Shown here: one piece after another, positions 42,851 to 53,140 of the stretch
Position numbering within the stretch: position 1 is the first letter of the stretch
How the letters are laid out: each line of letters starts with the position of its first letter
Notes under the pieces: model-generated
What the model saw: only the letters and a program-made list of their open reading frames with translations
What the model was told of the DNA's origin: nothing
Databases searched by the model: none
NCBI GenBank assembly: GCA_965224245.1
Contig: OZ245046.1
Location: 4,192,001 to 4,256,000, forward strand
Length of the DNA: 64,000 nucleotides
Reading direction: 5' to 3'
DNA from: Candidatus Eiseniibacteriota bacterium
GTDB taxonomy: Bacteria; Eisenbacteria; RBG-16-71-46; CAZAMP01
Translations under genes and position numbers: made by a program

Positions 42851-43843
42851 TCAGCCGTCGACCGACGCCATCCCGCGCTCGTTGTAGCGATCGCCCTTCA
42901 CCTTCTCGGCCAGCGTGTTCAATCGTTCGACGTGTGACGCGGTCAGCGTCACACCCGCGGCGCCGAGGTTCGAGCGTAGGTTCGCCGCGCGCGTCGTGCC
43001 GGGGATGGTGACGATCTCGTCTCCGCGTCCCAGCACCCAGGCGATCGCCACCTGGGCCGGTGCGACGTCGAGCTCCCCGGCGACCGCCTCGATCTCCTCG
43101 ACCAGGGCCAGGTTGCTCTCGAGCGCCTCGCCCCGGAAGCGCGGGACCGCGCTCGCCCGGAAGTCGCGATCCGCCGGCGTCCAGTCGCGCCGGAACGCGC
43201 CGGTGAGCATGCCCCGGCCGAGCGGCGAGTACGCGACGAACGTCACGCCGAGCTCGCGGCACGCCGGGAGCACCTCGTCCTCGGCGCCGCGCGTGAAGAT
43301 CGAGTACTCCGACTGGAGCGCGGCGACGGGGTGAACGGCCGCGGCCTCGCGGAGCGTCGTGGCGGTGACCTCGGAGAGGCCGATCGCCTTCACCTTGCCC
43401 TCGGCGACGCAGCGCGCCATCACGGCCACCGTCTCCCCGATCGGCATCGAGCGATCGCGGCGGTGGAGGTACCAGAGATCCACGTGGTCGGTGCGGAGGT
43501 TCCGGAGCGACTGCTCGAGCGCGCGTCGCGCGTTGGCCTCCGACCCGTCGACCCGCCCGGTCGGAGCGCCCGTCTCGGGATCGAGGACGGGGCCGAACTT
43601 GGTCGCGATGAACACCCTTTCTCGCCGGTCGTGGAACGCGGCGCCGAGGAGCTTCTCGTTGTGACCGCCCCCGTAGAGCTCGGCGGTGTCGAAGTGGTCG
43701 ATGCCGGCGTCGATGGCGCCGTGGAGGAGCGCCACCGCGTCGTTCTCCTCCATCGCGGGGCCGTATGCGAACGACATCCCCATGCAGCCGAGGCCGATGG
43801 CGTTGACGGTCGGCCCCCCGGATCCGATGTGACGACGAATCAT
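42851..43843 (-). CDS. Aldo/keto reductase
   Basis: IGLGCMGMS, DTAELYG, ATKFG, DLWYLHR, IGLSE, QSEYS, YSPLGRG, IPGTT. Confidence 0.95.
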   Translation of the reverse strand: MIRRHIGSGGPTVNAIGLGCMGMSFAYGPAMEENDAVALLHGAIDAGIDHFDTAELYGGGHNEKLLGAAFHDRRERVFIATKFGPVLDPETGAPTGRVDGSEANARRALEQSLRNLRTDHVDLWYLHRRDRSMPIGETVAVMARCVAEGKVKAIGLSEVTATTLREAAAVHPVAALQSEYSIFTRGAEDEVLPACRELGVTFVAYSPLGRGMLTGAFRRDWTPADRDFRASAVPRFRGEALESNLALVEEIEAVAGELDVAPAQVAIAWVLGRGDEIVTIPGTTRAANLRSNLGAAGVTLTASHVERLNTLAEKVKGDRYNERGMASVDG

Positions 43844-43963
43844 GAAACCCCTCCCTGGATTGACGCCGGGGAGTCTACACGCCGTTCGGCGCCGGCGCGC
43901 GCCTCGCCGACGTCGGCGAGGCCGTCCTGCAGGAAATCTCATCGAATTCGACGAAACTTCCTG

Positions 43964-43977
43964 ACCGACCGGTCGGT
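43964..43977. promoter_or_regulatory. Perfect 14-bp palindrome, candidate TetR operator
   Basis: ACCGACCGGTCGGT in the divergent intergenic region, about 100 nt upstream of the TetR ATG. Confidence 0.65.
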
Positions 43978-44074
43978 AGGACACCCGCTGACCGGGCGTG
44001 ACCGCTCCCGGCCCGACAGCGACCGACCCGAACCGCCGCACCCGGCGGCGAGCCAGCCGGAGATCCAGAGACCC

Positions 44075-46204
44075 ATGAAGGACCGCATCGCCCGCGAGGC
44101 CATGAACCTCTTTGCCCGCAAGGGCTTCGCCGGGACGTCGATGCGCGAGATCGCCGAGGCGTGCGACGTCACGAAGGCGACTCTCTACCATCACTTCCCG
44201 GACAAGCACGCCCTCTACCAGACCGCCATCGGCCAGGCGCTGGACGAGATCTGCTCGCGCGTGGCCGCCGCGGGAGCGGACGCGCCCGACCCGCTGACGC
44301 GACTCCGCCGGCTCGTCCGCGCGCAGCTCGAGCTCTTCGTCACCGAGTCCACGCGGATTCGTGCGCTCTACCACAACCTCCTGATGCCGGACGCCGAGCC
44401 CCCGGACGTCGTGTCTCGACCGATGCCGATCCATGACGCGCTGATCGCCTGCGCCGAGGCGGGCTACCTCCCGCAAGAGCAGGTGTCCGACACGTACGCG
44501 CTCCTGGCCGGGGGCATCGAGTTCATCGGGGTGAACTGGCTTCTCGACCCGCGCTCGCCGAAGCCGACGGCGGAGCGCGGTGAGCGTCTCATTCGCGCCG
44601 CGCTTCCGGCGGTGGCGGAGACCGCGGCGGCCGCGACGTCGCCGACCCGCCGACCGGGGGCAGGAAAGCCCAACGCCACGAAGCCCCCCCGGCGTCATGC
44701 GATCGCGTGTCTGGTCGGCCTCGGATCGGCGCTCTCGATCGCGCTCGCGGAGGTCGCGAGCGCCGCGGAGGTCGTCGGCGCCGGTGACACGGCCGCCGGT
44801 GACACGGCCGCCGGCGACACGGTCGTGGCCATCCCCGGGAGCACGCAGGTGCTGACGCTCGCGACGTGCCTGGATCGCGCCCTCGAGGCCAACCCCGCGC
44901 TGGAGGCCGAGCGCGAGGGACGCGGCGAGCTTCACGGTCAGAAGTACCAGGCCCTGGCCATCGGGCTGCCCTCGCTGGACGTGGTCACGAACTGGTCCCG
45001 GAGCCGCGACCCGAGCTTTGCCCTGGACGCAACGTTCGGCGGTGGCGGCGACGGATTCCCATCGACCGGGGACGACACCGCCGACGCCGTGCTGGCCGCG
45101 CTCGGTGAGGGACTGGTCACCCCGGCCGCGGACGTCCCGGCCCAGACCTTCTGGCGGGCCAGCGCCGACCTGACCTGGGAGATCAATCCGTTCCTGGTTC
45201 GGAACGCGGTGGCGGCGGCCGGGATCGGCACCGACCGGCAGGACGCGATCATCGCCGACACGGAGAACCGGACCGCCGAGCGCGCGCTCGCCGCGTACTA
45301 CGACGTGCTGCGCGCGTCCGAGCAGCGCGCGGCTCTGGAGGCCGAGATGACCGCTCGCCGCGAGTTCCTCGACATCTCCCGGCGGCGGTTCCGGCTCGAC
45401 CTGGCCACGGGGCTCGACACGCTCCAGGCCGCGGTGTCGCTGGCGAACCTGGAGCCCGACTGGCGGCGTGCCCGGGAGACCGTCGTGAACGCCGGCTCGC
45501 GACTGAACGTCGTGATGGGACGCGATCCGATGACGCCGATCACCATCGAGTCCCGCGTCGACGTCGAGACCGACCCCATCGATCGCGACGCCGTCATCGC
45601 ACTGATCGACCGGCGCCCCGATCTCCGGGCGCTGCGCCTGCTCGGCGACATTCAGCGCAAGAACAGGGGCGCGCGCCGGGCGGAGTCGCGCCCGTACCTG
45701 TCGCTGTTCGGATCCTACGGCTACGTCGCGACCGCGTTCGACGATCTCGGGGATCCCGACCAGGACACCTGGCGCGCGTCCGTCTCGCTGAACGTGCCGA
45801 TCTTCGACGGGCTCCTGACGAAGGGCCGGGTCGACGAGACCGAGGCCACGATCCGGAGAATCGAGTTCCAGGTCGAGGACGCCGAGCGTCAGGCGCGCTA
45901 CGAGGTGCAGACGCTGGTCACCGAGGTCGAGGTCGCGCGCGCCAACCTGCGGGCGGCCGAGCTGAACCTGGCGCGCGCCGAGGAGGCGCTCTCGATGACC
46001 ACGCTTCGCTACGAGAACGGCAAGGCCGACTACCTGGCCGTTCTCAACGCGCAGGCCGACCGCTTCGTGGCCAGACGCAACCTGATCGATGCACGCCATT
46101 CGGTCGCGACGGAGACCGCTGCGCTCAAGCGCGCGCTGGGCCACGGACCCCTGACCCCGCTTCACGACATACTCGACGCGACCTCGCGATCCACGGAGGA
46201 CTGA
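44075..46204 (+). CDS. TetR-family regulator fused in frame, via an internal signal peptide, to a TolC-family outer-membrane efflux protein
   Basis: TetR HTH LFARKGFAGTSMREIAEACDVTKATLYHHFPDK; linker; RRHAIACLVGLGSALSIALAEVASA; TolC LTLATCLDRALEANP, LPSL, RPDL, LNVPIFDG, RYENG.ADYLAVLNAQ; no stop codon between the domains. Confidence 0.8.
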   Translation: MKDRIAREAMNLFARKGFAGTSMREIAEACDVTKATLYHHFPDKHALYQTAIGQALDEICSRVAAAGADAPDPLTRLRRLVRAQLELFVTESTRIRALYHNLLMPDAEPPDVVSRPMPIHDALIACAEAGYLPQEQVSDTYALLAGGIEFIGVNWLLDPRSPKPTAERGERLIRAALPAVAETAAAATSPTRRPGAGKPNATKPPRRHAIACLVGLGSALSIALAEVASAAEVVGAGDTAAGDTAAGDTVVAIPGSTQVLTLATCLDRALEANPALEAEREGRGELHGQKYQALAIGLPSLDVVTNWSRSRDPSFALDATFGGGGDGFPSTGDDTADAVLAALGEGLVTPAADVPAQTFWRASADLTWEINPFLVRNAVAAAGIGTDRQDAIIADTENRTAERALAAYYDVLRASEQRAALEAEMTARREFLDISRRRFRLDLATGLDTLQAAVSLANLEPDWRRARETVVNAGSRLNVVMGRDPMTPITIESRVDVETDPIDRDAVIALIDRRPDLRALRLLGDIQRKNRGARRAESRPYLSLFGSYGYVATAFDDLGDPDQDTWRASVSLNVPIFDGLLTKGRVDETEATIRRIEFQVEDAERQARYEVQTLVTEVEVARANLRAAELNLARAEEALSMTTLRYENGKADYLAVLNAQADRFVARRNLIDARHSVATETAALKRALGHGPLTPLHDILDATSRSTED
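44780..44824 (+). repeat. 3x 15-bp tandem repeat (AGDTA)3 at the N-terminus of the mature TolC portion
   Basis: GCCGGTGACACGGCC x2 plus GCCGGCGACACGGTC. Confidence 0.9.
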
Positions 46205-46209
46205 CCCCC

Positions 46210-47382
46210 ATGCAGAGCCGAATCATCGAGTGGCGGCACGCGAGCCTCGCGCTCACCGCCGGTGTCCTCGTCGCCTCGACGCTCGTCGGCTGCGCCCGGC
46301 AGGGCGAGACCGCGGCGGACACGTCTCCCGAGGAGCCACCGATCAACGTACGCGTGCTTCACACCTCGCGCGGGGAGCTCGTGGAGTTCCTGGAGATCAC
46401 GGGGCGACTCGACGCCGTCCAGGGCACGGATCTGTCCACCGAGGAGACCGGCGTCGTCGAGAGCGTCCCGCACGACAAGGGCGACGCGGTCGCCGAGGGC
46501 GACGTCCTCGTGGCGCTCGACCGCGATCTCCTGGAGGCGGAGAAGAGGCGCGCCGATGCCGATCGCACGTTGGCCGAGTACAACGAGGATCGGACGCGCA
46601 ACCTGTTCGACGCGAAGTCGGTCAGCGGCCAGGAGATGCTGGTCGCGGCGACCCAGCTCGCCAAGGCGGAGGCCACCGCGGCCGAGGCGGCGCTGCGCTT
46701 CGAACGGGCCGCCATCAAGGCCCCGTACGCGGGCGTCGTGGCCGACCGGTACGTCGAGGTCGGACAGCTCGTCACCGCCGGCACGCCGGTCGCGCGCATC
46801 GTGGACCCGTACACGCTGAAGCTCACGGGCGCGGTCACCGAGACGCAGGTGCGCCAGCTCGAGGTCGGGGCCCCGGTCACGCTGCGGCTGGACGGCGTGG
46901 CGGCGGCGGTCACGGGAGTCGTTCACTGGATCGGCTTCGAGGCCCACCCTCGCAACGGAAAGTTCCCCGTGGAGATCCACGTCGCCAACGAGGATCTGTC
47001 ACTCCGCCCCGGCGTCGTGGGACGCGCCCGCGTCCGGACGGCACGTCATCGGGACGTCGTGGTGATCCCGCGGGATGCCGTGCTCAGCGACGAGGATGGT
47101 CAGCACCTGATGGTGGTTCGCGACGGCGAGAGCGTCGCCACTCCCGTACCGATCACGCTGGGTCCGGATCAGGGCGCGCTCGTGGTGATCGAGTCCGGCC
47201 TCGATGCGGGCGCGCGTGTGATCGTTCGCGGACAGCGTGACGTCTCGACCGGGTCACGCGTGGCGATTCAGGAGGAGACGTCGGAGCCCGACGGCTCCAT
47301 CCCCACCGATCCCGTCGAGGTGCGCGAGCGCGAGCGGGGTCGCCTCGCCGGCGACACCCATCCACAGGGGGCTTCGCGATGA
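46210..47382 (+). CDS. RND efflux periplasmic adaptor (MFP), probable lipoprotein
   Basis: Lipobox-like LVGC; G.V....KGD.V..GDVL; IKAPYAGVV; LRPG; VVIPRDAV. Confidence 0.92.
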   Translation: MQSRIIEWRHASLALTAGVLVASTLVGCARQGETAADTSPEEPPINVRVLHTSRGELVEFLEITGRLDAVQGTDLSTEETGVVESVPHDKGDAVAEGDVLVALDRDLLEAEKRRADADRTLAEYNEDRTRNLFDAKSVSGQEMLVAATQLAKAEATAAEAALRFERAAIKAPYAGVVADRYVEVGQLVTAGTPVARIVDPYTLKLTGAVTETQVRQLEVGAPVTLRLDGVAAAVTGVVHWIGFEAHPRNGKFPVEIHVANEDLSLRPGVVGRARVRTARHRDVVVIPRDAVLSDEDGQHLMVVRDGESVATPVPITLGPDQGALVVIESGLDAGARVIVRGQRDVSTGSRVAIQEETSEPDGSIPTDPVEVRERERGRLAGDTHPQGASR

Positions 47383-50300
47383 GGATCACGAACCTCGCGG
47401 TCTCCCGTTACACGACCGTGTTCGTCCTGATGGCGATCGTGGTCATCCTCGGGATCACGTCGTACGAACGTCTGCCGCGCGAAGCGAACCCGGACGTCAA
47501 GATCCCGTTCGTGATGGTCTACGCGCCCTACCTGGGTACGAGCCCCTACGACATGGAGAACGTCGTCACCCGAAAGCTCGAGGCACAGCTGAAGGCGCTC
47601 CCCGATCTGGTCGAGATGTCGAGCGTCTCGTCCGAGGGGGTCGCCACCGTCGTGCTCGAGTTCACGCCGGACGCGGAGATGATCGACGTTCTGCAGAAGG
47701 TGCGCGACGCCGTCGAGATCGCCAAGCCCGAGCTGCCCCAGGACGTGCGAGAGGATCTCCTCGTCTACGAGATCAGCTCGGACGACTGGCCGATCATGCA
47801 GGTGGTCATGTCCGCCGACTACGACCCGGTCGTGTTGAAGCAGCACGCCGAGGACGTGCAGGAGGAGATCGAGCAGATCAAGGGCGTGCTGTCGGTGGAT
47901 CTCACCGGGGGCGTCGAGCGCGAGGTGCGCATCGACGTGGATCCCGAGCGGCTCCAGTTCTACGGCCTCGGCCTGGTCGACGTCCAGGACGCGATCTCGC
48001 TGGAGAACGTGACCATCCCCGGCGGCGACCTGAAGCTCGGCACGTACGACTACCAGGTCCGGGTCCCCGGCGAGTTCCCCGAGGTCGATGCGATCCGCGG
48101 CGTGGTGCTGAACCCGGGCGCGGACACACCGATCTACGTGGGCGACGTGGCCGAGGTCACCTTCGGGCTGAAGGAGCGCAGCTCCATCTCGCGACTCAAT
48201 GGCACCGAGGCGGTCACCCTGTCGATCAAGAAACGATCCGGCGAGAACATCATCGACATCGCCGACGAGGTGAACCAGCTCATCGCCGAGTATACCGAGA
48301 CGCTCCCGGCGGGCACGTCGATCCAGATCATCGCCGATCAGTCGGTCTACATCCGCGACATGGTGCACGAGCTCGAGAACAACATCCTGAGCGGACTCAT
48401 GCTCGTGGTCGCCGTCCTGTTCCTGTTCCTCGGGCTCACGAACTCGTTCTTCGTCGGCGCGGCGATCCCCCTGTCCATGCTGATCTCGTTCATGGTGCTG
48501 AACGCCATGGGGATCACGCTGAACATGGTCGTGCTGTTCTCGCTGATCCTGGCCCTCGGCATGCTCGTCGACAACGCGATCGTCATCGTCGAGAACGTCT
48601 ACCGTCACCTCGGCAAGGGCAAGGAGCGGTCGCGGGCGGCGCTGGACGGCACCGGCCAGGTCTCGAACGCGGTCGTCGCGTCCACGCTGACCACGATCAT
48701 GGCGTTCGGTCCGCTCATCTTCTGGCCGGGCATCATGGGCGAGTTCATGAAGTACCTCCCGATCACGCTCGTGGTGTGCCTGGCCAGCTCGCTGTTCGTC
48801 GCGCTGGTGATCAACCCCGTCCTCTGCTCGCGGCTCATGCGACGCCCGAAGCCCGGCTCCGGGAGGCCCCGCTTCGGCGATCGAATGCTCGCGTTCGGCC
48901 TGCGAACCTACGAGCCGGTGTTGACGGCGGCGCTGCGACATCGCGTGGTCACCCTGGCGGGCATCCTGGTCGTGCTCGTGGGCACGATCGCGCTGTTCGT
49001 GCGATTCAGCGCCGGGGTCGAGCTGTTCCCCGACGTCGATCCCACGTACGCCTACGTCAAGGTCAACGCGCCGTCGGGGACCCGGATCGAGATCAGTGAC
49101 GCGTACGCACAGACCATCGAGGGGGCCGTCGAGGACGTCCCCGATCTGAAGGCGTTCGTGACGCAGGTGGGCACGGCGACCGACGACACCTTCGGCGGAC
49201 CGAGCGGGGCACCCGCGCACCTGAGTCTGCTGAGCATGGAGTTCCTGAAGAAGGAGGATCGGGAGCAGTCGTCACGGCAGGCGCTGGAGGACCTCCGCGC
49301 GCGACTGCGGAGCTTCACCGGCGCGAAGCTCTACATCGAGAAGCAGGAGGAGGGCCCCCCGGCCGGCAAGCCGGTGAACATCGAGATCTCCGGCCGCGAC
49401 TTCGAGGTGCTCGGCGATCTGGCCACCCAGGTCAAGACGATCATCCAGGACACGCCCGGGCTCGTGGATCTCCAGGACGACTTCGATCGCGGGCGACCGG
49501 AGATTCGCGTCCGGCCCGACCTGGACAAGGCCGGACGGTTCGGCCTGCGAACGATCGACGTCGCGTCCACGCTGCGCACCGCGCTTCACGGAGACGACGT
49601 CTCGAAGTACCGGATCGGCGAGGACGAGTACGACATCGTCGTTCGCCACGCCGGACGGTCCCGGTCCTCGCTGGAGGACATCGAGTCCATCACGGTGTTC
49701 TACGAGGGAGAGACGATCCCGATCACGGCGTTCGCCGACGTGAGCTACGCCACCGGGCTCGGTGCGATCACCCGGATCGACGGCAAGCGCGTGGTGACGG
49801 TGTCCGGCGACGTGGCCGCGGGCTTCAACGGCAACGCGGTGCTGGCGAGCGTCCGCGAACAGCTCGCGGCGTTCGACGTGCCGCCCGGCTATCACCTCAC
49901 GTACACCGGCGAGAACGAGGAGCAGGAGGAGGCCCAGCGCTTCCTGTCCGACGCGTTCGGGATCGCCGTCATGCTGATCTTCCTGGTGCTCGTCACGCAG
50001 TTCACGTCGGTGACCACCCCGTTCGTGATCCTGATGAGCGTCATCCTGTCGATGATCGGCGTGTTGATGGGGCTCCTCGTGACGCGGACGCCGTTCGGGA
50101 TCATCATGACCGGCGTCGGCGTCATCTCGCTGGCCGGCATCGTCGTGAACAACGCGATCGTGCTCCTGGATTACTGCATCCAGCTCCGCCAGCGCGGAAT
50201 GCCCCTGATCGAGGCGGTTCTGGAGGCGGGCAAGGTGAGATTCCGGCCGGTCATCCTGACCGCGATCACGACGATCCTCGGACTCATCCCGCTGACCACC

Positions 50301-50555
50301 GGCATGTCCGTCGACTTCGGGCGCCTCGTCCGCGGTGAGTTCGGGCACGCGTTCATCATCGGCGGCGAGTCGAGCCAGTGGTGGGGGCCGATGGGGGTGG
50401 CCGTGATCTGGGGACTCGCGGTGGCCACGTTCCTGACGCTGGTGGTGGTGCCCGTGATGTACGTGGCGGTCGAGCACCGCAAGGAGCGTCTCGGCGCGTG
50501 GTGGGCGCGCCGCCGCGCGGCGTCTGAGACGGCGGCGACGCCCGACCTCGCCTGA
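47379..50555 (+). CDS. RND efflux permease (AcrB/HAE1 family)
   Basis: LPREANPDV, GMLVDNAIVIVEN, GIVVNNAIVL, RFRPVILTAITT; 1058 aa. Confidence 0.95.
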   Translation: MRITNLAVSRYTTVFVLMAIVVILGITSYERLPREANPDVKIPFVMVYAPYLGTSPYDMENVVTRKLEAQLKALPDLVEMSSVSSEGVATVVLEFTPDAEMIDVLQKVRDAVEIAKPELPQDVREDLLVYEISSDDWPIMQVVMSADYDPVVLKQHAEDVQEEIEQIKGVLSVDLTGGVEREVRIDVDPERLQFYGLGLVDVQDAISLENVTIPGGDLKLGTYDYQVRVPGEFPEVDAIRGVVLNPGADTPIYVGDVAEVTFGLKERSSISRLNGTEAVTLSIKKRSGENIIDIADEVNQLIAEYTETLPAGTSIQIIADQSVYIRDMVHELENNILSGLMLVVAVLFLFLGLTNSFFVGAAIPLSMLISFMVLNAMGITLNMVVLFSLILALGMLVDNAIVIVENVYRHLGKGKERSRAALDGTGQVSNAVVASTLTTIMAFGPLIFWPGIMGEFMKYLPITLVVCLASSLFVALVINPVLCSRLMRRPKPGSGRPRFGDRMLAFGLRTYEPVLTAALRHRVVTLAGILVVLVGTIALFVRFSAGVELFPDVDPTYAYVKVNAPSGTRIEISDAYAQTIEGAVEDVPDLKAFVTQVGTATDDTFGGPSGAPAHLSLLSMEFLKKEDREQSSRQALEDLRARLRSFTGAKLYIEKQEEGPPAGKPVNIEISGRDFEVLGDLATQVKTIIQDTPGLVDLQDDFDRGRPEIRVRPDLDKAGRFGLRTIDVASTLRTALHGDDVSKYRIGEDEYDIVVRHAGRSRSSLEDIESITVFYEGETIPITAFADVSYATGLGAITRIDGKRVVTVSGDVAAGFNGNAVLASVREQLAAFDVPPGYHLTYTGENEEQEEAQRFLSDAFGIAVMLIFLVLVTQFTSVTTPFVILMSVILSMIGVLMGLLVTRTPFGIIMTGVGVISLAGIVVNNAIVLLDYCIQLRQRGMPLIEAVLEAGKVRFRPVILTAITTILGLIPLTTGMSVDFGRLVRGEFGHAFIIGGESSQWWGPMGVAVIWGLAVATFLTLVVVPVMYVAVEHRKERLGAWWARRRAASETAATPDLA

Positions 50556-50574
50556 GCGTTCCCGCGACCGAGCG

Positions 50575-51592
50575 TCAGGACCCGGCGGCGGTCAGCGCGG
50601 CGATCGCGCGACGCGCGAGCCCGAGGCCGCTGGTGAACGCACCCTCGACGCGGCCGGCGACGCACCAGTCGCCGCCGACCCCGAGGCCCAGCTCGGCGTC
50701 GAACGCGGTCGTGTCGGCGGGCACCGGGTCCGGCAGCGCGTATCGCCAGCGGTGCGCGTCGCCGTGGAGCACCTCGGGAAGCCGGCCGGTCCGGCACGAC
50801 TCGGCGAATGCGCGCGTGAGCGCGAGCCGGACGTCGATCGGATCGGCCTCGAGATGCTCGGCCGTCCACCGGGGCGATGCATGGAACACCCAGGCGTCGC
50901 CTCCGGTCCGACCCGGCTTGGACGAGCTGCGGGCCGCCCAGGCGAGCGGTCCGTCTCCGATGAACGCGGCGTCGAACTCAACGTCCAGCGACGTCGCGAA
51001 CCCGAGCATGACCGCCCAGCACGGGCGCATTCGCGCGCGCGCGGCCAGCTCGGCCAGACGGGGTGACGCGGAGACCAGCGGCAATGCCTGTCCGGGCGGG
51101 GTCGTGACGAGTACGGCGTCGACGTGATCGGCGACGCCGTCTTCCGAGATGAGCTGCCAGGCGTCGGACTTCCGGCGAAGGTGCTCGATGCGGACGCCGG
51201 AGCGGATCGTGAGACCCGACCCCAGCGCGGTGGCCAGCGCGCTCATGCCCGGAACGCCGACGATCCACTCGGACGGTGGGTGCACGGCCTCGGGATCGCC
51301 GGGCTCGCGGAGCGTCCCGAACACCGCACGCCGGGGATGCCACGGGGCGACCAGGCCGGCCTCCCGCCACCGTTCGACGTGCGCACGAAATGCGGGGTCA
51401 CGAGCCGTGAAGAACTGAGCGCCGTGATCGAACACGAAGTCGTCGTGGCGCCGCACCGACACACGGCCGCCCGGGCGCCGGCCCTTGTCGTAGAGAACGA
51501 CGTCGACGCCCCGGTCGGCGAGCGCCCGCGCCGCCGACATCCCCACAGATCCCCGCGCCGACGATCGCCAGCCGACCGGTGATGCGTCGCAT
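50575..51592 (-). pseudogene. Renalase-like NAD(P)/FAD oxidoreductase with a single-base frameshift (or sequencing error)
   Basis: MRRITGRLAIVGAGICG then one extra G (GGGG, 51541-51544) before MSAARALADRG; DHGAQFF, HRWRYA, GDWC..GRVEGAF.SG downstream. Confidence 0.8.
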
Positions 51593-51649: not shown

Positions 51650-53140
51650 TCACCGCAGGATCTGAATCCGGAGCGCGCTCGCGGCACCGGTGACGTCGAC
51701 ATAGTAGACGCCCGGCGTCGTCGGTGCACCATGGGTCGTCACGCCGGTCCACACGAACGGGAAGCGGTCGACACGCTGCCGGAAGACCAGGCGCCCGGCC
51801 ACGTCGTAGATCGACACGAGTCGCCGGCCGGAGCCCGGGACGTCGAGCCGGATTGCGCCCCGGGTCGGATTTGGCCACGCCGACGGCACGGGGTGAGACC
51901 CGGTGACCGGCGCGATGCCGACGACCTGATTGAGCGCCCCGAGCGCGTTCACGCGGCCCGATCCGAGCTTGTCGACGTAGGCGCCGTTTCCGGGCAGATG
52001 GTAGATGGCATCGGCCCCGTCCACGACGGCGCTCTGGACCAGAGACGCGGTCCACGTCGGGTGGAGAGACTGGACCAGCGCCGCGATGCCCGACACGAAC
52101 GGGGTGGCGAACGAGCACCCGGCGCCGAGCGCCCACTGCCCACCGGGGTACGAGCTCCGGACCCCGGTGCCCGGCGCGGACACGTCGACCTCCTCGTGCC
52201 AGTCGGCGAAGTCGGCCTTCACGTCCACGGAATCGAGAGCGGTGACCATGATCGTGTCGCCGTCGGATCCCGGGTAGTACGGGGGGATCTCGGTGCTGGC
52301 GTTGCCGGCCGCGGCCACCATCAGCGCCCCCCGCATGTCTCCGTACTGGATCTCCCGCTCGATCGCGTCGACCTCGATCGGCACGCCGAAGCTCATGTTG
52401 AGGATGTCGGCGCCGGACTCGATCGCGTAGCGGATGCCTTCGATGACCCGGAACGCGTCGGCACGCCCCTCGTCGTCGAGAATGCGAACGGGCAGGATCG
52501 AGGCGTCCGGCGCGACCAGCGCGAGAATCCCGGCGACCATCGTGCCGTGGCCGTAGCCGTCGTCGACCTCGCCGTCGCCGTCGTCGTCCAGGTCGTTGAA
52601 CACCTCCCACGGCTCGGCATCGGCATCGACGAAGTCCCAGCCGGACACCAGGTGCCCCACGAGCGCCTCGTGTGTGGGATCCACTCCCGTGTCGAGCACC
52701 GCGATCGTCACCCCGGCGCCGGTCGAGATCGCGTGCGCGGCGTCGAGCGCGATCCGATCGGTCAGGAGCTGATCCTCGTAGTCGACGTATCCGCCACCGA
52801 CGATGATCGCAATCATCTGGCGCACGCCCTCGGGCGTGTCCTCGATGTAGTTCGGCTCGGCGTTCGCGACGTCGGGGTCGCCCGTCATCATCTCGGCAAA
52901 GTTCTCGAGCTCGTCGACACCGTCGATGAACACGAGGTACAGCCCGGCGGTCGCAAAGGAGTCGACCGTCTCGGTGCCCCAGCGCTGGTTCACGTCGTCG
53001 ATCGACGCGCCCTGCTCGAGCCAGAGGACGATCTCGCCGGACTCCCACGTCCCGGTCGCGGAGACACTCCCCGCCACCAGCGTCGCGCTCAGTCCGATCG
53101 CGAGAATCGTGAGAAGCGGGTGCGTGTGTCGGTCAATCAC
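51650..53140 (-). CDS. Secreted S8 (subtilisin-like) peptidase with CTD-like tail
   Basis: Triad VLDTG / GHGTMVAG / GCSFATP; oxyanion AAAGN; DDDGDGEVDD Ca-binding loop; tail WPNPTRG...YDVAGRLV...GVYYV. Confidence 0.9.
   Translation of the reverse strand: MIDRHTHPLLTILAIGLSATLVAGSVSATGTWESGEIVLWLEQGASIDDVNQRWGTETVDSFATAGLYLVFIDGVDELENFAEMMTGDPDVANAEPNYIEDTPEGVRQMIAIIVGGGYVDYEDQLLTDRIALDAAHAISTGAGVTIAVLDTGVDPTHEALVGHLVSGWDFVDADAEPWEVFNDLDDDGDGEVDDGYGHGTMVAGILALVAPDASILPVRILDDEGRADAFRVIEGIRYAIESGADILNMSFGVPIEVDAIEREIQYGDMRGALMVAAAGNASTEIPPYYPGSDGDTIMVTALDSVDVKADFADWHEEVDVSAPGTGVRSSYPGGQWALGAGCSFATPFVSGIAALVQSLHPTWTASLVQSAVVDGADAIYHLPGNGAYVDKLGSGRVNALGALNQVVGIAPVTGSHPVPSAWPNPTRGAIRLDVPGSGRRLVSIYDVAGRLVFRQRVDRFPFVWTGVTTHGAPTTPGVYYVDVTGAASALRIQILR

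Follow-up and report, generated by a model that had tools for sequence, protein, structure and literature searches.

A TetR-family repressor fused in frame to a TolC-type channel at the head of an RND efflux operon in Candidatus Eiseniibacteriota

How can a repressor of the cytoplasm and a channel of the outer membrane be encoded by a single reading frame? The question is raised by a gene in a 64,000-nucleotide stretch of DNA from a Candidatus Eiseniibacteriota bacterium (assembly GCA_965224245.1, contig OZ245046.1, positions 4,192,001 to 4,256,000 of the forward strand), here called the window. A TetR repressor is regarded as a soluble protein switched by its ligand, and an outer-membrane channel as a Sec substrate in its own right. 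In the window, one stop-free frame of 709 codons, from an ATG at 44075 to 46204, joins a TetR-family repressor to a TolC-type outer-membrane factor at the head of a resistance-nodulation-division (RND) efflux operon. An earlier note on this DNA, made from the sequence alone, had read the frame as TetR, linker, signal, spacer and TolC, and each element lies where that note placed it. The fusion is real, conserved and recurrent. Its segments are as follows.

44075 to 44635, plus strand: TetR-family repressor domain, residues 1-187 (Pfam, structure model, profile matches)
44636 to 44689, plus strand: Ala/Pro/basic (Arg/Pro-rich) linker, residues 188-205, its end forming the positively charged n-region of the signal (model, alignment)
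44690 to 44764, plus strand: internal Sec-type signal-like segment RRHAIACLVGLGSALSIALAEVASA, residues 206-230 (n/h/c anatomy, position)
44765 to 44821, plus strand: acidic repeat spacer, (AGDTA) about three times, forming the variable N-terminal tail of the predicted mature TolC (tandem repeat)
44822 to 46204, plus strand: TolC/OprM-type outer-membrane factor, from the conserved VVAIPG (residue 250) to the stop (Pfam, profile, structure model)

Pfam assigned TetR_N (PF00440) to residues 7-49 (E 3e-17, 62 bits against a cut-off of 24) and two OEP repeats (PF02321, E 1e-49) to the TolC part, which bears out the earlier claim that both domains share one frame. HTH_Tnp_1_2 overlapped the N-terminal part below threshold (16.6 bits against a cut-off of 27.9); otherwise this part matched TetR_N only, and no OmpR-type winged helix of the kind found in ToxR and CadC was detected by Pfam. 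Profile searches against solved structures matched the TetR part to the regulators 5k7f (5e-22, profile positions 5-187), AcrR (2qop, 1e-17) and MtrR, and the TolC part to the OprJ-like 9j3d (6.5e-26), OprM (1wp1) and TolC (1ek9). An AlphaFold2 model built on 23 homologues, with a mean predicted local distance difference test score (pLDDT) of 80.7, contains ten helices in TetR residues 2-187, where block pLDDT is mostly 80-91 and dips to 55-68 at residues 101-120. Together with the profile alignment, it describes an all-helical, two-domain TetR fold of about 190 residues. From about residue 249 onward, the model shows a confidently folded TolC protomer with long helices and strands. Residues T33, K34, A35, Y38 and K44 around the helix-turn-helix (HTH) are invariant in the 23 aligned fused proteins, in which the TetR domain is conserved to the same degree as TolC. 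The TetR part has no stop codon before TolC and is not a free-standing soluble TetR; the missing stop is an architectural departure, with the domain itself kept. The conserved Cys265 was considered as a lipoprotein site and rejected, since the preceding LATC, LEAC or LDTC is unlike a lipobox and the residue lies inside the first TolC helix; the predicted cleavage site has no lipobox cysteine either.

The long open frame carries little weight in itself, because the DNA is 71% GC and the other two frames contain only 20 and 5 stops. The weight therefore falls on 22 other fused homologues and on a fused gene at 37% GC. A search of 5.8 billion proteins found TetR_N with OEP in 23 of the best 120 relatives listed (query included), which are 665-774 residues long, share 43-54% identity and stem from four independent sources (JGI, Logan, NCBI and ENA); the remaining 97 contain TolC only and measure about 450-540 residues. 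At the DNA level, 80 loci from species-representative genomes were scanned with stop-to-stop frames and two family hidden Markov models (loci, proteins and genomes bear L, P and G numbers below). Both domains occupy one frame in the window and in eight of these loci (L002, L003, L004, L038, L041, L045, L046 and L005, the last cut by a contig end). The suggestion that relatives might always encode two genes is thus contradicted, and the architecture recurs in independent genomes, in the 22 other proteins as well as in a set from Elusimicrobiota.

That second set came from a profile search of 1.84 billion cluster representatives. Among the best 150 matches listed, 19 were scanned with Pfam, and six of the 19 carried TetR_N and OEP (P0157, P0165, P0188, P0195, P0252 and P0261). 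Three of the six bear the names Elusimicrobia or Elusimicrobiota in their sources, and the cluster of P0188 has 21 members on many contigs. L169, from Elusimicrobia, was confirmed at the DNA level as a single 628-codon fused frame in DNA of 37% GC; a chance open frame is excluded there because the other frames hold 43 and 51 stops. Its TetR C-terminus (…GVAKR) runs straight into TVAICILALFLLSQTLFA, followed by QS, and MFP-sized and RND genes lie downstream (MFP, membrane fusion protein). The Elusimicrobiota TetR-TolC fusions are a second, separate set. Within the 6.9-Mb genome of the window, a search for a second TetR-TolC gene found only two weak TolC-like matches.

A contig scan with the distant fused alignment, in which a generic HTH pattern recovered mostly ordinary TetR genes, yielded four further candidates that did not hold as full-length fusions. 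L099, L105 and L112 each contain two genes in different frames; in L092 (L092:1219-3249), tetR and tolC share a frame but stand 33 nt apart with one stop between them. At L092, tblastn read the two genes as a single match, so full-length matches of this kind can hide a stop.

The joint between the domains is a polyprotein-like one, in that two complete proteins in one frame meet at a signal-like segment, with no conserved independent start. In the AlphaFold2 model, residues 186-218 are disordered (pLDDT <50), residues 216-230 form a helix, and residues 228-246 are again disordered (pLDDT <50). The 15 residues preceding the hydrophobic core of the window protein include five Lys or Arg, and RRHAIACLVGLGSALSIALAEVASA consists of RR, an 18-residue uncharged core and then two candidate cleavage sites, ALA before E or ASA before A. 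The n/h/c anatomy of a Sec signal is present in 23 of 23 fused proteins: a basic stretch, an uncharged hydrophobic run and small AxA or AxQ residues, mostly with acidic residues thereafter. At least three (three to nine) Lys or Arg fall within the 15 residues before the core in 22 of the 23. At the matching position, unfused orthologues carry N-terminal signal peptides, and the earlier reading of the segment as a Sec-type signal agrees with both its anatomy and its place.

The flanks of this segment vary while the frame is kept. Linkers differ in length and sequence among homologues, even between the close P0003, P0004 and P0005, and the linker indels that distinguish close relatives all preserve the frame. 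The pre-signal linkers measured at nine loci are 6-39 residues long; in P0011 and L046, TetR is followed almost directly by the core. Codon-position GC in the pooled linkers is highest at the third position (GC3 0.84, above GC1 and GC2). The (AGDTA)3 spacer reported earlier was recovered as a 15-nt tandem repeat at 44779-44822 (2.9 copies, 96% matches). Homologous spacers range from about 5 to more than 60 residues, and some between core and TolC are very short, as with QTVE in P0020 and P0022 or the whole 25-codon junction of L046. In P0015-P0018 (alignment columns 330-400), the post-signal spacer grows by acidic short repeats of DADNF and ETAVG types; these spacers differ by 25-29 residues between near-identical proteins, a pattern like that of the window.

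If the TetR part still regulates, a binding site should be found near the gene, and one candidate is conserved. The elements upstream and the genes downstream are as follows.

43953 to 43957, plus strand: GAAAC motif, possible promoter element, four bases upstream of the operator
43961 to 43979, no strand assigned: putative operator CTGACCGACCGGTCGGTAG, presumed TetR binding site (conserved motif with a perfect 14-bp palindrome inside)
46210 to 47382, plus strand: gene of the MFP, the periplasmic adaptor (HlyD_3 E 6e-22, HlyD_D23)
47379 to 50555, plus strand: gene of the RND inner-membrane transporter (ACR_tran E 1e-219)

The perfect palindrome ACCGACCGGTCGGT noticed earlier is present at 43964-43977 and forms the core of the putative operator. 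It is not significant alone, since one match or more with up to two mismatches turned up in 64 of 100 shuffled versions of the window, and it becomes so only through conservation in relatives. A near-palindromic motif, CTGACCGACCGGTCGGTA(G), lies upstream of tetR in every related locus examined, comprising seven fused loci (L002, L003, L004, L038, L041, L045 and L046), three split loci (L032, L056 and L057) and L001, from which most of TetR has been deleted. This conservation holds despite protein identities near 45-50%. At L001 the operator-like TTGACAGACCTGTCGGTA is still upstream. In the far more distant L169, a perfect 20-bp palindrome, ATGACTGACTGGTCAGTCAT, directly follows a TTGACA…TATAAT promoter (L169:4925-4975) and is related to the operator of the window's family. 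The operator 17-mer occurs exactly once in the 6.9-Mb genome, with one match at two mismatches compared with two for the reversed control. GAAAC is found in six of 11 aligned upstream regions, each belonging to a fused locus, and L003 has GTAAC instead; the GAAAC motif may belong to a promoter outside the sigma-70 consensus. A scan of 43700-50900 for sigma-70 consensus promoters and terminators found none, although such a scan is uninformative for this lineage. Given a conserved, unique operator followed by the same operon, the TetR part looks like an operon-specific autorepressor.

The downstream genes were correctly anticipated as MFP and AcrB-type genes and were confirmed by Pfam at 46210-47382 and 47379-50555. 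A GGAGG precedes the MFP ATG by 11 nt, and the RND ATG overlaps the MFP stop (ATGA). The order tolC-mfp-rnd is the same in eight of eight fused loci, three of three split loci and L001, and RND orthologues of 65-69% identity are present in all 12 related loci checked. The TolC part is thus encoded with MFP and RND partners, as expected of an outer-membrane factor.

Relatives that retain two genes show the likely ancestral state, in which the tetR stop overlapped a tolC start led by a Shine-Dalgarno (SD) sequence. At L032, the tetR stop overlaps a GTG that follows AAGGAGG and begins a normal N-terminal signal peptide; at L067, an ATG follows GAGGAG at the start of tolC; L056 and L057 are two-gene loci of similar layout. 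Around more distant TolC relatives, a more distant tetR lies directly upstream in another frame at 13 loci, and none is within reach at 44. For a TolC tree, 101 rows were taken: 72 of the 80 loci (without eight partial ones), the window, P0002-P0023 and the six distant fusions. All 31 fused rows of the window's family fell into two neighbouring groups of 12 and 29 rows, with Shimodaira-Hasegawa-like approximate likelihood ratio test values of 89 and 91 (both under the star threshold). Also within these groups are the split clade of L032, L056 and L057, six rows that lack tetR and a single row whose tetR is distant. On this tree the fused label needs eight changes, at least four of them imposed by well-supported branches, and fusion and loss have accordingly occurred repeatedly. 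No order of events was drawn, because this is a quick tree with long outgroup branches.

Within the class of the window, the variety is similar on a small scale. Six of 41 genomes (its own included) encode an orthologue at E <= 1e-30: two fused (its own and G001), two split, one TolC only and one derivative, G033. The locus of G001 is L002, of the same family as the window, yet its fused protein is only 51% identical. That of G033 is L001, whose gene (L001:5884-7497) retains the TetR start and about 16 TetR codons, followed in frame by an Arg-rich linker, signal and TolC. L001 is a natural in-frame TetR deletion in which the repressor start codon was kept, and judged from its sequence it offers the best natural evidence that TolC may be translated from the TetR start.

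What, then, might become of such a product? The reading preferred here is that it is probably a polyprotein that enters the membrane N-in/C-out and undergoes cleavage by signal peptidase I, which would free TolC and leave an operon-specific autorepressor anchored by the signal peptide. From the features described above, we infer single-chain translation, Sec targeting, cleavage and a fate for TetR. The gene would be the first cistron of an autoregulated tetR-tolC-mfp-rnd efflux operon, in a lineage in which tetR would have lost its stop codon and tolC its own start. Translation would run from the TetR ATG at 44075 through to the TolC stop. The TetR domain would fold in the cytoplasm, and the Arg-rich linker with the hydrophobic segment (residues 206-230) would act as an internal N-in/C-out signal, taking the TolC part through Sec. 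Signal peptidase I would cut after ALA or ASA, near residue 225 or 230, and the freed TolC would proceed to the outer membrane. TetR(1-205) would keep the signal peptide as a C-terminal membrane anchor, at 1:1 with TolC monomers, and would repress the operon through the single conserved operator at 43961-43979. Cleavage is the economical reading, because the shortest spacers appear too short for an uncleaved chain across the periplasm, by our estimate of the distance from the inner membrane to the outer-membrane barrel from the dimensions of TolC and AcrB.

The fate of the TetR remnant may follow that of other spent signal peptides. The genome encodes S26 signal peptidases, four Peptidase_M50 (site-2 protease, S2P) matches and S49 (SppA) matches, as most bacteria do. 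Clipping of the remnant by proteases of the S2P/RseP and SppA types, with TetR released or destroyed, appears by analogy somewhat likelier than a permanent tether. The lean in this direction comes from E. coli RseP, which according to PMC8144685 clears signal peptides out of the membrane and also cuts FecR, a regulator of N-in orientation, and from the predicted orientation of the TetR-signal-peptide remnant, which is that of FecR without a periplasmic domain.

Several points weigh against the preferred reading and are gathered in this and the following two paragraphs. The most elementary concerns the DNA itself, since a frameshift at the C7 run, located at 44684-44690 as reported earlier, could merge two genes, and the junction was compared with assembled contigs. 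Logan contigs of two runs, one of 33.6 kb from X1 and one of 35.2 kb from X2, cover 44000-45200 without any difference or gap, so that no indel or stop is seen across 44600-44770 in contigs, as distinct from raw reads; the two runs are one sample, possibly the source data, and this is modest support, the comparative evidence being stronger. Three 'joints' in the comparison were short pieces of other contigs, with 20-21 letters a side, and were set aside. An artefact is nevertheless extremely improbable, given the identical junction in both assemblies, a signal segment in the TetR frame on both sides of the C run, and 22 divergent homologues fused through linkers of differing sequence. A more substantial alternative is that one frame yields two proteins, with TolC made mainly from an internal start, either GTG 44612 or a non-canonical one, and readthrough tolerated after the loss of the stop. 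GTG 44612, in the last TetR helix, is indeed the sole in-frame ATG, GTG or TTG between the TetR fold and the core; no SD-like motif stands in the 20 nt before it, as the earlier note had surmised, and initiation there would produce a 27-residue n-region. L003 likewise has a GTG in the last TetR helix, and L038 has one only at the edge of the core, both without an SD-like motif. No in-frame ATG, GTG or TTG precedes the core in L046 and L005, and L041, L045 and L169 have such codons only inside it, those of L169 being two TTG codons. In contrast, L002 and L004, two of the nine high-GC fused loci (window included), have, immediately ahead of the core, a GTG that follows GAGG or GGAG at a distance of 8-10 nt. 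Separate initiation of TolC is possible in these two, non-canonical internal starts are possible at any fused locus, and the ancestral genes were apparently translationally coupled. Across the nine high-GC fused loci and L169, however, no start or SD sequence is conserved in the linker, and dominant internal initiation, at 44612 or elsewhere, is therefore unlikely as a general rule. The same operon has an SD-led MFP start and a coupled RND start, yet the TetR-TolC linker has no such signal, and L001 kept the TetR start after its TetR deletion. The production of TolC mainly from an internal start is accordingly unlikely, and even then the full-length fusion would be made, because TetR has no stop.

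The signal itself and its cleavage also invite caution. The cleavage site was placed with hand-applied n/h/c and AxA rules. Fused forms have a median net charge of +6 ahead of the core, compared with +1 to +2 in 64 unfused orthologues, among which the only +7 is L001, although this comparison is of related, non-independent sequences and is inflated by kinship. The higher charge fits a reinforced positive-inside signal; some of the Arg richness of the linkers may, however, be owed to their being GC-rich and disordered, and in the AT-rich Elusimicrobia fusions the charge is no more than about +2 to +4. Cleavage being itself predicted, and L001 demonstrating that TetR can be lost, the product might be an uncleaved fusion or carry a decayed TetR as a functionless leader. 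This is very improbable: an uncleaved chain is hard to reconcile with the shortest spacers (P0020, P0022 and L046), and a decayed TetR with a domain as conserved as TolC, invariant residues in the HTH region, a confident fold and a conserved operator. A further proposal, which takes up the tethered TetR of the earlier note, is that cleavage occurs and TetR remains anchored in the inner membrane for life, binding its operator there and sensing lipophilic pump substrates where they accumulate, with co-translational membrane insertion of the operon's own products holding the locus at the membrane. Regulators that bind DNA while held in the membrane are well known, ToxR and CadC among them, the topology would follow from the same signal anatomy and model, and a single exact operator beside its own gene could suffice for a short-range tethered repressor, for which pre-signal linkers of 6-39 residues could provide reach. 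The near absence of a linker in P0011 and L046 speaks against it, as does the use of a soluble TetR with the same operator by the split relatives. Remnant signal peptides are, moreover, normally cleared by S2P and SppA, according to PMC8144685, and the genome has both. Both this lifelong tether and its membrane-held locus seem rather unlikely.

The selective value of the fusion is a separate matter. The system does not need it, because L032, L056 and L057 run the same operon and operator as two genes, and judged from the tree the fusion appears to be gained or lost fairly easily. It may be a nearly neutral ratchet from translationally coupled genes, which is the sober alternative to an adaptive feedback device given split relatives with the same parts. 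A feedback device of this kind can be proposed tentatively, with the odds against it: each exported TolC monomer would leave one TetR held at the membrane by its spent signal peptide. In that event, signal peptidase would provide a constitutive 'site-1' cut and S2P the 'site-2' cut, and an active or short-lived cytoplasmic repressor would arise only in proportion to successful channel export. Stalled Sec export or signal-peptide clearance would sequester the repressor and de-repress the operon, placing a TetR-family regulator under intramembrane proteolysis as well as ligand control. The uncertainty lies in the biochemistry, that is, in cleavage, the fate of TetR and selective benefit, and not in the sequence facts.

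If cleavage occurs as preferred here, a TetR and a channel that are probably made as one chain in dozens of genomes and at least two lineages would provide a natural and simple system for asking how the signal recognition particle, Sec and signal peptidase handle an internal signal behind a folded cytoplasmic domain, whether spent signal peptides serve as regulatory tethers, and how fusion ratchets arise from translationally coupled genes. This TetR would then begin life anchored in the inner membrane, at a fixed 1:1 ratio to the channel that it regulates.

Two further genes of the window lie on the opposite strand.

42851 to 43843, minus strand: divergent aldo/keto reductase gene (Aldo_ket_red E 5e-72)
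51650 to 53140, minus strand: subtilase gene (Peptidase_S8 E 6e-41) with an N-terminal signal-like start

The reductase gene corresponds to the last 330 codons of a 1104-codon open frame (minus strand, 42851-46165) antisense to TetR-TolC. These codons are the only real gene in it, and the rest is a high-GC artefact of open reading frame listing. At its C-terminus the subtilase carries an additional domain of about 100 residues that Pfam does not match and that might serve in sorting or secretion.

A literature search found, among the matches listed, no paper describing a fusion of TetR to an outer-membrane factor; the word 'polyprotein' is absent from the covered portion of PMC8277102, and in the corresponding portion of PMC4827864 a section on fused outer-membrane proteins contains no TetR fusion. 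Database labels for these proteins read 'TetR family regulator' or 'TolC family protein', which hides one half each time because the label names only the other. The name 'outer membrane protein TolC/AcrR family transcriptional regulator' also exists and shows that annotation pipelines have already met the fusion.

The closest known systems share some features with this gene and differ in others. Local repressors of the AcrR/acrAB, MtrR and TtgR type share with the TetR part a TetR_N HTH, a helical ligand domain and a palindromic operator beside pump genes. Unlike the AcrR type, the product here cannot be a simple soluble protein of 200 residues. The usual local RND regulator, according to PMC8277102, is a separate, divergently oriented TetR gene, whereas tetR here is co-directional, the first cistron, and fused in frame to the channel. 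The factors TolC, OprM and OprJ likewise have two OEP repeats and are encoded with MFP and RND partners, but the export signal is internal here, behind a 205-residue cytoplasmic part. Pfam also revealed ACR_tran with OEP in one protein among matches of the distant profile search (P0172, P0201 and P0205), an AcrB-type RND transporter joined to its channel. In those proteins the channel is preceded by an inner-membrane component of its own machine. In the window the preceding half is a soluble DNA-binding repressor, and the predicted cleavage would for that reason create a membrane-anchored transcription factor. The cytochrome b-c1 precursor FbcH of Bradyrhizobium is a polyprotein split at an internal signal sequence, its second half being exported and released by cleavage; it differs in that other proteins are involved and both halves stay in one complex. 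ToxR and CadC, as well as RseA and FecR, resemble the predicted topology in that a cytoplasmic regulatory domain at the N-terminus is followed by one N-in/C-out span and a periplasmic part. This likeness is one of topology only, and no homology was found or is claimed. The DNA-binding domain here is of TetR type and not the winged helix of ToxR and CadC. According to PMC8144685, the processing of FecR and RseA begins in the periplasm, with RseP acting second. In the present gene the periplasmic part would be cargo and not a sensor, and the first cut would be made by a constitutive signal peptidase.

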